Below, piece by piece: positions 21,907-23,739 of a stretch of 46,037 nt of DNA. The first letter of the stretch is position 1; each line of letters begins with the position of its first letter. The stretch is from Escherichia phage ClaudiaMuster_Bas77. The notes beneath the pieces were generated by a model. The model saw only the letters and a program-made list of their open reading frames with translations. It had not been told where the DNA came from and searched no databases. The DNA lies in the sequence record PQ850598.1, one strand, 5' to 3'. Both the position numbers and the translations under genes were made by a program.

Positions 21907-22277
21907 ACATGCTTGAGCTGGTTGATGCATATCTTCAGGATGCAGGATTGTATGATGGCTGGACTTCGCAGTTGCAGTTCTGGAACGACACCGGAGATGG
22001 CAACGAGCAATTTATTGTTCTGCAATCCAATGGTGGCACGCAGGTGATGGACGGCCTCGGCGGTGACTTCTATTTCTCGCTGTACGTTGTTGGGAAACAA
22101 GGCCAGTACAATGTTGCTGATGTCGACGCTAAAGCCAATGAGATTATCGAATACATCAAGACACATCCGATTGATTCATGCGTGAACTACATCCAGTTGC
22201 AGGCTCCTCTCGGACGACCAATGTTGACGGAGGAGAAGCGCCCTGTGCATGAGTTGCTTTTGCGGGTTGTGAAATAA
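21903..22277 (+). CDS. putative tail terminator protein
   Basis: 124-aa ORF, last of the coupled head-tail joining genes. Confidence 0.4.
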   Translation: MNMLELVDAYLQDAGLYDGWTSQLQFWNDTGDGNEQFIVLQSNGGTQVMDGLGGDFYFSLYVVGKQGQYNVADVDAKANEIIEYIKTHPIDSCVNYIQLQAPLGRPMLTEEKRPVHELLLRVVK

Positions 22278-22282
22278 ATAAA

Positions 22283-22305
22283 GCCGCACGAAGCGGCCTT
22301 ATTGC
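22283..22305 (+). terminator. weak hairpin (GCCGC acgaa GCGGC)
   Basis: Short GC stem immediately after the 21903..22277 stop; poor T-tract. Confidence 0.3.
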
Positions 22306-22309
22306 TGGT

Positions 22310-22940
22310 TTAAGCATTGCCAGCATGCTTTCTTAATATCCAGCCCCGTAACCCATACATACCCCTACATATGATTGCGATAATGCTGGATATTAAGTGT
22401 TGTGGTGGCCGGTGCTGATATCCGGCATAAGGCGCTTATTCGGCGGCGTCGAGCTTGCTTATTCGCTTGAGCCATCCTCGTGAGTCAGCCACGTCCCACT
22501 GCGCATCAGCCTGCGCATTCACCACAACGGAAATAGCACTGGATAACCAAGCGCGCAGACTCTTCACGATTATCTGCTCAATGCTCTTACCTGTTGTGTG
22601 CCACGTTTCGTGTGGCTTACGGCAACGACATTACCTGGTTATTCGCTGCACCCTTGAGGGATTTACTAAGGCGACATGCCCGTTGTTACCCACGAATGAG
22701 AGTACTGTCTTCGAGCAGACTTTGCGCGCAAGAACGACGATCAATCACAATACCCTCATTTGTGGGTGCCCATTATTAATCACAGCGGGCCACTGCGCCG
22801 AATTTGCTTACAAGGAATCGGAAGACCTTGCTGACTTACAGGCTATTACGCCGCCATCAGAACAACATCATCGTTTGCATTTATCTTTGTGGTCAGTTTC
22901 TAAAAAGTCCGCAAAGTCGCTTACGAAAACCATCTGAAAT
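22310..22940. other. ORF-poor ~630-bp region with 13-bp inverted repeat
   Basis: No convincing ORF on either strand (track ORF 22455..22937 starts at TTG and has non-protein-like composition). CTTAATATCCAGC (22332-22344) pairs with GCTGGATATTAAG (22385-22397); GCCGG tgctgatat CCGGC hairpin near 22409-22427. Confidence 0.4.
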
Positions 22941-22942
22941 AC

Positions 22943-22986
22943 AATCTACACCACAAAATAATCACTGTCAACACCTGTGATATAAT
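22943..22986. promoter_or_regulatory. divergent promoter region
   Basis: Plus strand: extended -10 TGaTATAAT (22978-22986) ahead of the major tail gene. Minus strand: TTGACA (rc of 22967-22972), 18-nt spacer, TAGATT (rc of 22943-22948), pointing into the ORF-poor region. Confidence 0.5.
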
Positions 22987-23022: not shown

Positions 23023-23739
23023 ATGGCTATTTGTGCAAATGATAAAGGCGTTCTGGTCGGTCGCATGACCAGACTGTTCCTTGCTGAAGGGTGCGGAGAC
23101 GCAGTTCCGGAGGCGGGAGACTGGAAGTATTTAGGCTCAACCACCAGTAAGGGTGTTGACTACTCGCCGCAGACTACCACGTCGGAGGCAGATACCACTG
23201 GCGGTTTTGTTTCCACTCTCGTTACCAGCTCTGATATGACCATCAGCGCAGAGGTGGAAATCCGCAAGAATGACCCGAGCGATGAGTTTGGCTTCCATCG
23301 TCTGGTTGAGATTTACGCCACCGAACTGAAAGCTCGTCGCCAGCCTTCCTTGTGGGTGCGTCAGGTGACTGGTGCGACTATCGTTACGGCGTATTGCAAC
23401 ATCACCAGCATCAGCTACGAAGGTGGTACGAACGATATCGTTACTGGCAGCCTTGAGTTCAAGGTTTACGATTCTGATAGCGTTACCGTCGAAAGCCTTG
23501 AGCCTCTGGCATTCACTACAGACCTGCCATCAACTGGCACGGCTGGCAGCCCGTTAACTGTTGCTGTTGAAGGTGGTGTCGCTCCTTACACTTATGTATG
23601 GCGCAAAGATGGCGTGGTTGTCGGCAGCGAATCAGGCGCGTCTCTGGCAAGCCCTGCCGCTGGCGTGTATACCGTCACGGTGACTGATTCGTCTACTGAC
23701 CCTGAAATTATTATCAGCACGGCTTGCACTGTGTCCTGA
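23023..23739 (+). CDS. major tail protein with C-terminal Ig-like domain
   Basis: 238 aa; located just before chaperone and tape measure genes; C-terminal Ig-like segment (TAGSPLTVAVEGGVAPYTYVWRKDGVVVGSESGASLASPAAGVYTVTVTD). Confidence 0.65.
   Translation: MAICANDKGVLVGRMTRLFLAEGCGDAVPEAGDWKYLGSTTSKGVDYSPQTTTSEADTTGGFVSTLVTSSDMTISAEVEIRKNDPSDEFGFHRLVEIYATELKARRQPSLWVRQVTGATIVTAYCNITSISYEGGTNDIVTGSLEFKVYDSDSVTVESLEPLAFTTDLPSTGTAGSPLTVAVEGGVAPYTYVWRKDGVVVGSESGASLASPAAGVYTVTVTDSSTDPEIIISTACTVS

Follow-up and report, generated by a model that had tools for sequence, protein, structure and literature searches.

A predicted non-coding RNA operon of Escherichia phage ClaudiaMuster_Bas77 whose first module appears to derive from tmRNA

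The locus and its modules

A predicted minus-strand non-coding RNA operon of ~660 nt spans 22935 to 22272 in the window, that is, in the whole 46,037-nucleotide stretch of Escherichia phage ClaudiaMuster_Bas77 DNA (PQ850598.1) that was analysed. As read from its sequence, this is a structured phage RNA operon with a tmRNA-derived first module, the part of it that is universally conserved. Its features, in the direction of transcription, are:

22943..22971, minus strand: sigma-70-type promoter (TTGACA 22971-22966, 17-nt spacer, TAGATT 22948-22943)
22879..22935, minus strand: 57-nt leader, an antisense copy of host ssrA nt ~64-108
22843..22878, minus strand: tag reading frame ANDDVVLMAA with stops UAA UAG, identified by Rfam matches and a coding signature
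22831..22860, minus strand: helix over the tag end and stop codons (CUGAU 22860-22856 with GUCAG 22835-22831), like tmRNA helix 5
22798..22830, minus strand: pseudoknot a (stem 1, CAAGG 22830-22826 with CCUUG 22815-22811; stem 2, CCGA 22821-22818 with UCGG 22801-22798)
22768..22797, minus strand: pseudoknot b (stem 1, CGCAGU 22797-22792 with GCUGUG 22786-22781; stem 2, GCCC 22790-22787 with GGGC 22771-22768)
22603..22767, minus strand: optional structured domain of ~165 nt, delimited by its presence or absence among relatives
22523..22598, minus strand: long irregular helix 'LH', CACAACAGGUAAGAGCAUUG ... CAGUGCUAUUUCCGUUGUG, its apical insert variable (from the module map of 130 loci)
22400..22526, minus strand: non-canonical tRNA-like unit (cloverleaf-like MFE fold, -51.3 kcal/mol)
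22332..22397, minus strand: conserved hairpin formed by a 13-bp inverted repeat, its 40-nt loop carrying AUAGGGGUAUGUAUGGG
22272..22331, minus strand: small hairpin AAGCAUGCUGGCAAUGCUU, then a bidirectional intrinsic terminator (sequence reading)

The promoter matches the consensus at 10 of 12 positions and is kept in Bas81 and ASO78B. The sequence-only reading had recognised the same two hexamers, although it counted 18 nt between them where there are 17. Transcription is predicted to start at ~22935 on the minus strand, and similarity to the copies in Schitoviridae, Sashavirus and Ackermannviridae starts at 22935/22934; since the predicted start coincides with the onset of inter-family homology, the RNA probably has a free 5' end here. 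The earlier suggestion of a structured non-coding RNA transcribed from this promoter is supported by that coincidence and by the covariation analysis against related phages that had been proposed as a check, in which the minus-strand structures covary across relatives.

At the other end of the operon, the terminator stem (22297-22283) is followed by UUUAUUUAUUU on the minus strand, the stem search having listed this stem for the plus strand. Relatives carry downstream tRNA-Ser, tRNA-Arg and tRNA-Met genes, the first two between the small hairpin of 22272..22331 and the terminator; all are absent from Bas77, which appears to have lost them. The region as a whole is a mosaic of modules with many indels among relatives, and no gene for SmpB or a tRNA-processing partner was found among the annotated genes of the phage.

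The ~165-nt domain is present in Sashavirus, Bas81 and some prophages and absent from ASO78B and PE007, where the flanking blocks join directly; in other phages its position holds tRNA-like inserts. The LH module recurs in relatives before tag modules and before tRNA-like units, and is a putative processing signal. Besides an acceptor-like stem of 7 bp (UGUGGUG 22526-22520 with CACCACA 22407-22401, then A 22400), the tRNA-like unit comprises a D-like hairpin (22517-22500), central hairpins, and a T-like hairpin whose loop has 9 nt. This last element, GCCGGATATCAGCACCGGC on the minus strand at 22426-22408, is the second GC hairpin that the sequence-only reading had pointed out. The D-loop GCUGA is complementary to the T-loop UCAGC, a contact that is paired in 99.4% of cells and doubly compensated in one locus (L057), and over the unit 6 pairs show compensatory changes versus 0.7 in shuffles (0/500). 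Alanine charging is defined by a G3:U70 pair. The 3:70 pair of the unit is U-A, not G-U; A73 is present, and the next bases are CAC, with no encoded CCA. Relatives that do encode CCA are also without G3:U70. Judged by anticodon arm, 7-nt TPsiC T-loop and ARAGORN/RF00005, 22526-22400 is not a canonical tRNA. Such units vary between phages, and in Pollock the tag module stands alone and is followed by a terminator. Most copies of the tag module have a tRNA-like unit downstream, which could mean use in cis instead of the use in trans discussed below.

The perfect 13-bp inverted repeat that had first drawn attention to this stretch was verified by direct reading (CTTAATATCCAGC at 22332-22344 and GCTGGATATTAAG at 22385-22397, with a 40-nt loop); the chance expectation for such a repeat within 60 nt is ~6e-4 per 700 bp. 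The loop motif AUAGGGGUAUGU is kept while the stems covary across Skatevirus-like phages, Sashavirus and Pollock, the variants including several relatives in which U-A is replaced by C-G, Sashavirus with an unrelated stem of 25 bp and Pollock with a 12-bp stem. The informative part of the locus, however, is not the inverted repeat but the promoter-proximal 5' 170 nt, which form a tmRNA-like tag template.

The tag reading frame and the structures that follow it

Searches for known RNA families gave no gathering-level Rfam match in the window, and ARAGORN at default settings found neither a tRNA nor a tmRNA there. Sub-threshold Rfam tmRNA matches, centred on the tag, were found on the minus strand in 9 of 9 copies tested; the best score in the locus is 28.5 bits against a threshold of 47, and the highest-scoring models are those of two-piece tmRNA. 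ARAGORN did return a 'permuted tmRNA' with the right tag, at a 70% threshold only; this candidate was rejected, its predicted 5' part overlapping the start of the tail gene and the promoter.

The frame reads GCA AAC GAU GAU GUU GUU CUG AUG GCG GCG (22878-22849), followed by UAA UAG (22848-22843). As in tmRNA, 22878-22843 combines an alanine resume codon, a hydrophobic tag end and stop codons. All 138 genuine copies, comprising 36 distinct sequences, have exactly 10 codons and a stop, and 20 different tags were found, each 10 codons long. In every copy codon 9 is Ala or Val and codon 10 is Ala, the latter invariably GCN with all four third bases seen. Single-base codon differences in the tag frame, counted from non-independent pairs and with the first 8 nt of the frame fixed by the search pattern, are 840 synonymous versus 434 nonsynonymous, as against 71:1076 and 142:1024 in the other frames. 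Moreover, none of 15 chance pattern matches in bacterial genomes has the coding features of the tag family. Together, these patterns show that the module has a tag frame of 10 codons, akin to that of SsrA, on which protein-coding selection acts.

The structures after the tag correspond to helix 5 of tmRNA and the pseudoknots 3' of its tag, with compensatory change at 14 of the 23 pairs of the helix and two pseudoknots. Over 72 non-redundant copies of the tag module, 94.2% of cells are paired versus 32-45% in slid controls, and double-change cells number 189 versus 64 +/- 8 in shuffles (0/500). The stop-spanning helix has compensatory changes at 4 of 5 pairs, one pair being A-U 25 times and G-C 33 times. 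Pseudoknot a is paired in 99-100% of cells, with compensatory changes at 6 of 9 pairs; pseudoknot b keeps its loop AUUAAUAAU invariant while one stem-1 pair is C-G 43 times, G-C 17 times and U-A 12 times, and its stem 2 covaries. A scan of 136 copies, some with truncated downstream context, for a canonical T-arm with a complement in the 5' region gave no acceptor stem enclosing the tag. The UGUGGUG in the promoter spacer was considered as a 5' acceptor strand and rejected as a remnant of a helix/acceptor junction, the real partner being the proximal strand.

The leader and its match to host tmRNA

Nucleotides 3-35 of the leader RNA (22933-22901) are antisense to host ssrA nt ~64-108, a stretch made up of the 3' side of PK1, the A-rich linker, the resume codon and tag codons 1-6, and the leader is by its sequence an antisense copy of this part of host tmRNA. 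An invariant motif at its 5' end, UGGUUUUCGU (22932-22923), lies opposite the host tag codons D-E-N-Y. No part of the element is better conserved than the leader, and its conserved complementarity to a defined target, with a 5'-end seed opposite single-stranded target, is what is expected of an antisense RNA. An antisense function had been among the earlier suggestions; it fits, with the difference that the target, host tmRNA, lies in trans. At its 3' end the leader runs directly into the GCA resume codon with the 10 nt AAAGAUAAAU, in which A-6 U-5 A-4 stand as in the AUAGUC of E. coli. The frame-setting context of E. coli tmRNA is A84 U85 A86. In 72 copies of the phage element, the UAAAU before the resume codon is nearly invariant, an A-rich frame-setting context of the same kind.

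In local alignments against antisense ssrA, the Bas77 leader scores 27, where the null is 14.6 +/- 2.1 and a single shuffle in 3000 got as high; 27 is tied at one other place and 26 is reached at ~6 more, all on other parts of ssrA. These other segments of the window, considered as further regions of similarity, were set aside as chance ties that hit unrelated parts of ssrA. As the Bas77 leader is shortened and its score tied elsewhere in the window, the strong antisense statistics are those of the family, in which leaders score a median of 32 and a maximum of 43 and at least 27 in 65 of 74 cases, P22-like leaders reaching 41 with 33 of 36 aligned bases identical. The duplex of leader and ssrA has a predicted energy of -42.8 kcal/mol versus -28.7 +/- 2.9 in dinucleotide shuffles (0/400). 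Raw RNAduplex energy was abandoned as proof of antisense pairing, being unexceptional against natural 57-nt windows of this GC-richer genome (z = -1.3, 9% as low), and was replaced by composition-matched shuffles, the local-alignment statistic and a host-versus-self contrast. In that contrast, pairing is predicted to be stronger with the host target than with the homologous stretch of the phage RNA itself for each of the 74 leader variants (-29.0 vs -14.4 kcal/mol).

Leader types that diverge in sequence are predicted to pair with one and the same part of host ssrA, each type in its own register; for one subtype the pairing is not significant overall (z = -0.3), although the 5' motif has an 11-nt match. 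Among 120 ssrA copies from enterobacteria the host target hardly varies, its main polymorphism falling in a predicted bulge, which leaves little variation from which leader-target covariation could be read. Sense-strand alignment to ssrA gave nothing significant beyond the short start of the tag. Where tmRNA has pseudoknot PK1, 5' of the resume codon, inspection by eye gave only a possible hairpin in the leader, CUUUGCGG with CCACAAAG (7 of 8 pairs), the leader being too invariant for covariation. A pairing of GACUUUGCG in the leader with CGCAAAGUC in the 165-nt insert was rejected as a family feature: of 20 loci with the insert only 6 have the exact pairing, and 77 loci do not carry the insert.

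Distribution, relation to known systems and possible function

The tag module was found in 524 of 50,697 phage genomes (~1%) and in 124 of 5,426 E. coli genomes, and in none of these is it annotated as such. It occurs in Ackermannviridae, Schitoviridae, Chaseviridae, Felix-O1-like phages, Sashavirus and several siphovirus groups, as well as in P22-like prophages of pathogenic E. coli, where it lies in prophage late-operon leaders; P22 itself does not have the element. Standard tools miss the RNA, and ARAGORN at default settings overlooked it in 18 of 18 related loci scanned. Neither the family, nor its tag peptides, nor a natural antisense RNA to tmRNA is described in the literature searched, although overlap with the 79 phage tmRNAs of a 2025 database paper is possible.

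tmRNA has been seen as a molecule complete in itself, and phage tmRNAs known to date are full copies. With bacterial tmRNA (SsrA, RF00023) the phage RNA shares a GCA resume codon after an A-rich ...AUAAAU context, a 10-codon tag with an A-N-D start, a hydrophobic A-A end and double stops, and a helix across the stop codons followed by consecutive H-type pseudoknots, and tmRNA models are its best Rfam matches. Unlike bacterial tmRNA, it has no acceptor stem formed by the RNA ends around the tag, the window is without G3:U70, canonical T-loop and CCA, and the 5' leader is antisense to tmRNA itself. In two-piece tmRNA (alpha- and betaproteobacteria, cyanobacteria; RF01849-51, RF04321), too, the template for the tag can be one RNA and the tRNA-like part another, the two joined by pairing, and the first pseudoknot of the phage RNA is like the betaproteobacterial one (CCUUGUAAnCAAA). 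In the known two-piece molecules, however, the 5' acceptor strand stands at the start of the coding piece, whose pairing partner is its own acceptor piece from a gene immediately upstream, whereas the 5' end of the phage RNA is predicted to pair with the one-piece tmRNA of the host.

Genes similar to ssrA have been reported from phages, namely the mycobacteriophage Bxz1 group, Bacillus phage G and, as a two-piece tmRNA, the marine myophage Melnitz (PMC4131195, PMC11915505, PMC9004378). Known phage tmRNAs are either complete or a bare TLD, and ARAGORN detects them, whereas the present family is invisible to it at default settings. Its composition is the opposite of that of the TLD-only RNA of mycobacteriophage DS6A, which is thought to inhibit host tmRNA (PMC4131195), for it has a tag template without a canonical TLD in cis. 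The interrupted ~38-bp match and exposed 5' seed resemble those of trans-acting antisense RNAs, but no antisense RNA is known that brings a replacement template along. The element also resembles phage tRNA clusters, being co-oriented with or embedded in those of Skatevirus-like, Schitoviridae, Felix-O1-like and other phages and having a tRNA-shaped unit; unlike phage tRNAs, this unit has a 9-nt T-like loop, a Watson-Crick contact between D-loop and T-loop, and no anticodon arm.

What could such an RNA do? It is quite possible, though short of probable, that it pairs with host tmRNA, silences the host tag template and supplies a phage-specified one. The transcript from the promoter at 22943-22971 would expose UGGUUUUCGU as its free 5' end, which would seed pairing on the single-stranded host tag template; pairing would extend into host PK1, closing the host resume codon and template. 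The phage strand would exit the duplex beside the host P2/tRNA-like domain, and ~10-22 unpaired nt with the A-6 U-5 A-4 frame-setting context would lead into the phage resume codon. The rescue of stalled ribosomes would still be the work of the host's alanyl-TLD and SmpB, but with (A)ANDDVVLMAA as the tag in place of (A)ANDENYALAA. The tRNA-like unit, the long helix and the GGGG-loop hairpin would be accessory modules of the transcript, variable or missing in other phages. Antisense oligonucleotides to the template region silence wild-type tmRNA, and a tmRNA with a different template still works (PMC7038980). In its more specific form, which I put forward a little more tentatively, the replacement template would act in trans by strand invasion of host tmRNA at PK1, the resume codon and the tag, making a chimeric two-piece tmRNA with no tRNA-like domain of its own in the complex. 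A canonical partner in cis is lacking, given that no acceptor stem encloses the tag in the 136 copies scanned, that the units are variable and without G3:U70, and that Pollock has the tag module alone. The opening of PK1, and a ~38-bp interrupted heteroduplex taking its place on the ribosome, would be without precedent.

Alternatively, the element could be an autonomous, if unusually organised, phage tmRNA, in which tag module and tRNA-like unit cooperate, either within one RNA or after processing into two pieces; the unit would be charged by some synthetase and enter stalled ribosomes with SmpB, and the leader would only remove competition from host tmRNA. The order of tag module and then tRNA-like unit in most of 130 loci, including the divergent Orgeat and Vi01, speaks for this, as do the structural selection on the unit, the canonical T-arms and encoded CCA of some relatives (CGCCACA-A-CCA in locus L034, CACCACA-G-CCA in the L011 type, ...GGC-U-CCA in Vi01) and the unit of L079, which has the highest score of all with the standard tmRNA model (20.2 bits). 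The tag, however, lies 5' of a self-contained unit and not inside it, so that RNase P processing would separate the two, and no pairing between them was found. Furthermore, no unit has G3:U70 (U3-A70 in the window, C3-G70 in Vi01), acceptor sequences differ between phage groups, the unit in the window has a 9-nt T-loop and encodes no CCA, and in phages such as Pollock the tag module is not accompanied by a unit; I consider this explanation unlikely. The same holds for a pure antisense inhibitor or decoy, an RNA that only blocks host trans-translation and whose tag frame is an unused relic, perhaps with tRNA-like decoys that titrate SmpB, by analogy with the proposal for mycobacteriophage DS6A. 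The antisense leader is indeed the most conserved part, synthetic antisense oligonucleotides block tmRNA (PMC7038980, PMC3384345), and TLD-only RNAs inhibit it (PMC4131195). Yet a relic frame should decay, and 138 of 138 copies keep the 10 codons, Ala/Val-9, Ala-10, the stop and the synonymous excess; the A-6 U-5 A-4 context ahead of the resume codon is maintained as well, as are the helix and pseudoknots that follow.

That the stretch is non-functional debris of a tRNA/tmRNA cluster, with decayed tRNAs and a captured ssrA fragment forming a spacer between head-tail and tail genes, would account for the tRNA genes that relatives have here and Bas77 does not, and for the mosaic of modules with its many indels. 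The sequence-only reading had likewise listed a decayed gene, which holds marginally for the lost downstream tRNA genes and is unsupported for a frameshifted protein gene. Debris is nonetheless very unlikely, as both the covariation and the coding signature contradict it: at least six phage groups, unrelated to one another, share the conserved modules, compensatory changes occur in five helices, and there is a dedicated promoter. Still less credible is a plus-strand protein-coding region or frameshifted pseudogene. GenBank has three hypothetical CDS (0053-0055) over the locus in Bas79, a near-identical phage, and similar 'hypothetical protein' calls cover the same block in several related records, whereas most leave the stretch unannotated; these calls are probably spurious. 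The claim that there is no convincing ORF fails mechanically, in that a 160-aa, TTG-started plus-strand ORF runs from 22455 to 22937, and stands in substance, there being no Pfam hits. Only one of the ORFs, of 58 aa, has a PHROG hit, a weak one (E=1e-3), and the alignment to relatives that had been proposed revealed indels that are not multiples of three, which, with the presence or absence of 165 nt, break the frames. In addition, invariant minus-strand G-U pairs would be C-A on the plus strand. Least probable is that the inverted repeats form a site in the DNA for packaging, recombination or replication. Several such repeats, and short motifs (CACAAC / GUUGUG) at module borders, could promote recombination, but the pairings tolerate G-U, which is sensible only in RNA, and the modules are shared by phages that package their DNA in unrelated ways and by the late-operon leaders of prophages; no support was found for the packaging or recombination site suggested earlier.

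What emerges is a large unannotated family of RNAs, widespread in phages of enterobacteria, that appear to hold the template half of tmRNA only, under coding selection and fused to an antisense arm against host tmRNA. If the replacement of the host template is real, viruses would have a way to rewrite the degradation tag with which the cell marks unfinished proteins, and RNA-guided viral reprogramming of trans-translation would extend over ~1% of sequenced phage genomes and the late leaders of P22-like prophages.

The locus and its predicted minus-strand transcript

The locus lies between the last head-tail gene (plus strand, ending at 22277) and the major tail protein gene (plus strand, starting at 23023). 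The window shares 99.8% identity with Escherichia phage SusanneMuster_Bas79, which is a siphovirus of 47 kb and belongs to a Skatevirus-related cluster. GenBank places three hypothetical proteins over the locus. The sequence-only reading had seen no convincing ORF here, which holds insofar as no plus-strand ORF has Pfam support and indels among relatives, brought out by the alignment it had proposed, break the plus-strand frames; however, a 160-aa plus-strand ORF does exist and three CDS are annotated. The only PHROG match at the locus is a weak one (phrog_26260, E = 1e-3), to a 58-aa plus-strand ORF at 22804-22980, and this family may have been assembled from spurious ORFs opposite the conserved RNA. 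The three CDS of Bas79 (0053-0055) probably do not correspond to real genes either.

On the minus strand, the promoter that had been proposed is present at 22971-22943 (TTGACA/TAGATT), although its spacer is 17 rather than 18, and homology between phage families begins at 22935/22934, the predicted transcription start. These two features, with compensatory changes in the minus-strand structures, bear out the earlier suggestion of a structured non-coding RNA, and the locus reads as an RNA operon on the minus strand, served by a dedicated predicted promoter. Its parts are as follows.

22935-22879, minus: leader of 57 nt
22878-22849, minus: tag frame of ten SsrA-like codons, then two stops
22603-22767, minus: optional structured domain of ~165 nt, between pseudoknot b and LH
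22523-22598: long irregular helix module (LH), CACAAC-A-GGUAAGAGCAUUG ... CAGUGCUCUUUCC-GUUGUG, also at the related loci L008, L018, L034, L042 and many more
22526-22400, minus: tRNA-like unit with a cloverleaf-like fold
22408-22426: GC hairpin, as noticed earlier
22332-22344 and 22385-22397: arms of the perfect 13-bp inverted repeat with its 40-nt loop, confirmed by direct reading
22278-22331: interval at whose position relatives have tRNA genes

An Rfam search had been recommended. At curated thresholds it matched nothing at the locus, but a permissive scan gave sub-threshold minus-strand matches to tmRNA_permuted (28.5 bits, threshold 47, E = 9e-4) and beta_tmRNA (17.2 bits). Both are driven by the segment AUAAAU GCA AAC GAU GAU GUU GUU CUG AUG GCG GCG UAA UAG, in which the tag peptide ANDDVVLMAA is followed by two stops, and like matches on the same strand were found in all eight related loci first retrieved. 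The phage tmRNAs described so far are either whole genes or a lone tRNA-like domain (TLD), and ARAGORN can find them (PMC4131195, PMC11915505, PMC9004378), whereas it called no tmRNA in any of 18 related loci scanned, nor, with default settings, in the window.

A conserved template module

The structure was tested on an alignment of 72 non-redundant copies, with an explicit model of pseudoknots a and b and one helix, in which tag codons 7-8 pair with a segment beyond the stop codons. Standard pairs fill 94.2% of cells, against 32-45% with partners slid; compensatory changes occur at 14 of 23 pairs, and double-change cells number 189 against 64 ± 8 in shuffles (0/500). Because of invariant G-U pairs, the RNA strand is the minus strand. 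The layout of tag, stop-spanning helix and consecutive pseudoknots is shared with tmRNA.

Every one of the 138 genuine copies, which comprise 36 different nucleotide sequences, has exactly ten tag codons and a stop, and the first viral scan alone yielded 20 different peptides (ANEEMYLAVA, ANDEQFLAVA and ANDNTFLAVA, for example). With the three codons fixed by the search pattern left out, third codon positions vary most (entropy 1.40 versus 0.94 for first and 0.80 for second positions); upstream of the tag all three positions are invariant. Single-base codon differences, counted over pairs that are not phylogenetically independent, are 840 synonymous to 434 nonsynonymous in the tag frame versus 71:1076 and 142:1024 in the other frames, a large contrast. 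Codon 10 is GCN in every copy, with all four third bases occurring, and codon 9 is Ala or Val throughout. Neither a start codon nor a Shine-Dalgarno sequence is conserved for the frame, and to our knowledge trans-translation is the sole way of reading such a frame. Judged by its codon pattern, the tag reads as a translated frame, and by these comparisons the template module is tmRNA-derived and under both structural and coding selection.

Sub-blocks of the region occur, almost always unannotated, in widely differing phages. More than 120 viral contigs match a pattern linking the tag start to a conserved loop, and a sensitive search found the 168-nt 5' block in 524 of 50,697 deposited phage genomes, all with Enterobacterales hosts (Ackermannviridae, Schitoviridae, Chaseviridae, Felix-O1-like phages, Sashavirus and several siphovirus groups). 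The same block search gave a partial match, leader and tag start only, in the P1-like Enterobacteria phage P7 (71207-71263), possibly a truncated version lying close to the tRNA region of P1. When each bacterial species was represented by one genome, a scan returned 22 pattern matches versus ~28 expected by chance: seven are genuine, all in Enterobacterales, and the 15 chance matches, without tag, leader motif or pseudoknot motif, serve as a negative control.

The element is also present in 124 of 5,426 complete E. coli genomes, within the late-operon leader of P22-like prophages, where ~1 kb between the genes for the Q antiterminator and holin carries no annotation; phage P22 itself lacks it. 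Two prophage copies, L130 (E. coli O26:H11 11368, NC_013361.1 3287139-3287295) and likewise L131, lie in P22-like prophages of pathogenic E. coli, where PGAP leaves ~1 kb unannotated. Stx phages carry tRNA genes and stx in the slot between Q and holin genes.

A leader complementary to host tmRNA

The leader was compared with authentic E. coli ssrA, the host tmRNA gene. The leader's invariant 5' motif (U)AGUUUUCGU(C) is exactly complementary to host tag codons D-E-N-Y (nt 96-106). In RNAduplex, nt 3-48 of the leader pair with nt 54-107 of ssrA, in blocks that include UGGUUUUCGU:ACGAAAACUA, GCGACU:AGUCGC (where the host resume codon lies), UUGCGG:CCGCAA (PK1 stem 2, 3' strand) and CUUUUUA:UAAAAAG. 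The duplex energy is -42.8 kcal/mol versus -28.7 ± 2.9 for dinucleotide shuffles (0/400); for four further leader types z ranges from -3.3 to -5.5. As the leader is AU-rich, its raw energy does not stand out among natural 57-nt windows taken from the phage genome (z = -1.3), and I therefore aligned leaders locally to antisense ssrA. Here the window leader scores 27, a value reached by 1 of 3000 shuffles, with genome windows at 15.0 ± 2.2; elsewhere in the window one tie at 27 and about six scores of 26 all fall on unrelated parts of ssrA. The P22-like leaders score 41 (33/36 aligned bases identical); the 74 distinct leaders have a median score of 32, and 65 of them reach at least 27. Within the window transcript, significant ssrA resemblance is confined to the leader.

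Wherever the phage's own homologous region departs from the host, the leader agrees with the host, at every position, and all 74 variants bind the host target better than their own region (-29.0 vs -14.4 kcal/mol). Divergent leaders stay complementary in other registers (PE007, GCGAUUAU:AUAGUCGC; Orgeat, GAUUAUUUUU:AAAAAUAGUC). The target segment is nearly invariant in 120 enterobacterial ssrA copies, and its main polymorphism, the length of an A-run, is located in a predicted bulge. The predicted host-over-self preference, the register shifts and the target invariance support a real target relationship, and the leader thus aligned reads as an antisense copy of host tmRNA PK1, resume codon and tag segment.

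Downstream modules and a possible mode of action

The recurring order in a 130-locus module map is LH, leader, tag, two pseudoknots, optional domain, LH, tRNA-like unit, and further modules or tRNAs. LH occurs ahead of tag modules and tRNA-like units alike and could act in processing, as a signal, or mark a cassette border promoting module shuffling; its apical loop often holds a tRNA-like element, such as the tRNA-Leu-like insert in Klebsiella phage Magnus. The ~165-nt domain is common to Sashavirus, Bas81 and some prophages and missing from ASO78B and PE007. It contains a hairpin whose loop of 7 nt reads ACGAAAC, as well as a stretch of 9 nt, CGCAAAGUC, that is an exact complement of the leader; in other phages tRNA-like inserts fill its slot. 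The inverted-repeat hairpin (22332-22397) is a separate conserved module, found also at L005, L007 and Skatevirus-like loci, in which the G-rich loop motif AUAGGGGUAUGU(A)UGGG is kept and the stems (12-25 bp) covary freely; neither a function nor a known family was found for it. This hairpin counts among the accessory structured modules of the operon.

Related phages carry minus-strand tRNA-Ser(GCU), tRNA-Arg(UCU) or tRNA-Met genes at the same locus; in Bas81, ASO78B and the related locus L024, tRNA-Ser(GCU) and tRNA-Arg(UCU), sometimes with tRNA-Thr and tRNA-Met, lie between the GGGG-loop hairpin and the terminator. No tRNA gene was called at the locus or elsewhere in the 46-kb window, whose phage has lost them. 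The leader's 5' motif GAUAGUU is identical to the 5' acceptor strand of the relatives' tRNA-Ser (GGAUAGUUGGC).

The tRNA-like unit was compared in 31 variants chosen by acceptor and T-stem pairing, the D-like stem and loop contact not being selection criteria. Compensatory changes occur at 6 pairs versus 0.7 in shuffles. Instead of the usual D-loop/T-loop tertiary contact of tRNA, the unit has a 5-bp Watson-Crick kissing interaction between its D-like (GCUGA) and T-like (UCAGC) loops; 99.4% of cells pair here, and one relative (L057, GUCGA:UCGAC) carries a double compensation. It has no anticodon arm. An autonomous split tmRNA, with this unit serving the tag in cis, is improbable: the unit is self-contained and 3' of the tag, has U3-A70 in place of G3:U70 and a T-like loop of 9 nt, and does not encode CCA. 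Its counterparts differ among phages, some having canonical T-arms and CCA but never G3:U70; in Pollock the tag module ends in a terminator without such a unit; and pairing of the 5' region with a strand after a T-arm was found in none of the 136 copies scanned. Self-containment, position, lack of G3:U70, variability, Pollock and the missing 5' pairing thus make the unit unlikely as the tag's partner, and candidate roles for it are decoy, SmpB or enzyme binding, or processing handle. Salmonella phage Vi01 has a compact tmRNA-TLD-like element ~300-430 nt 3' of the tag, with an acceptor stem GCCGUU/AACGGC, a closed P2-like helix, a canonical T-arm GGGUUCGACUCCC and U-CCA, then a long hairpin; it has C3-G70, not G3:U70, and ARAGORN makes no call. 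By several defining features the element is not a tmRNA, even though its template half is tmRNA-like.

I tentatively favour a model in which the phage RNA would pair with host tmRNA and supply a phage-specified template. Pairing would close the host resume codon and template; the phage strand would leave the duplex beside the host P2/tRNA-like domain and run through 10-22 unpaired nt, with an A-6 U-5 A-4 context, to its own resume codon, thereby offering the phage template to the host alanyl-TLD/SmpB. Such a model would explain why no cis TLD is found, why there are template-only genes, why the frame is under coding constraint, why phage codons 3-6 differ from those of the host and why the family is restricted to Enterobacterales. 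Its logic has a laboratory precedent in antisense oligos against the tmRNA template, which silence wild-type tmRNA while tmRNA with a different template stays active (PMC7038980; see also PMC3384345). A pure inhibitor or decoy RNA would only block host trans-translation, and I consider that reading unlikely, the coding constraint being among the features that a supplied template would explain. A literature search on these tag peptides, phage tmRNA-like RNAs and natural antisense RNAs to tmRNA gave no match, and the BASEL paper is silent on the locus. If true, trans-reprogramming of host tmRNA by a phage RNA would be categorically new.
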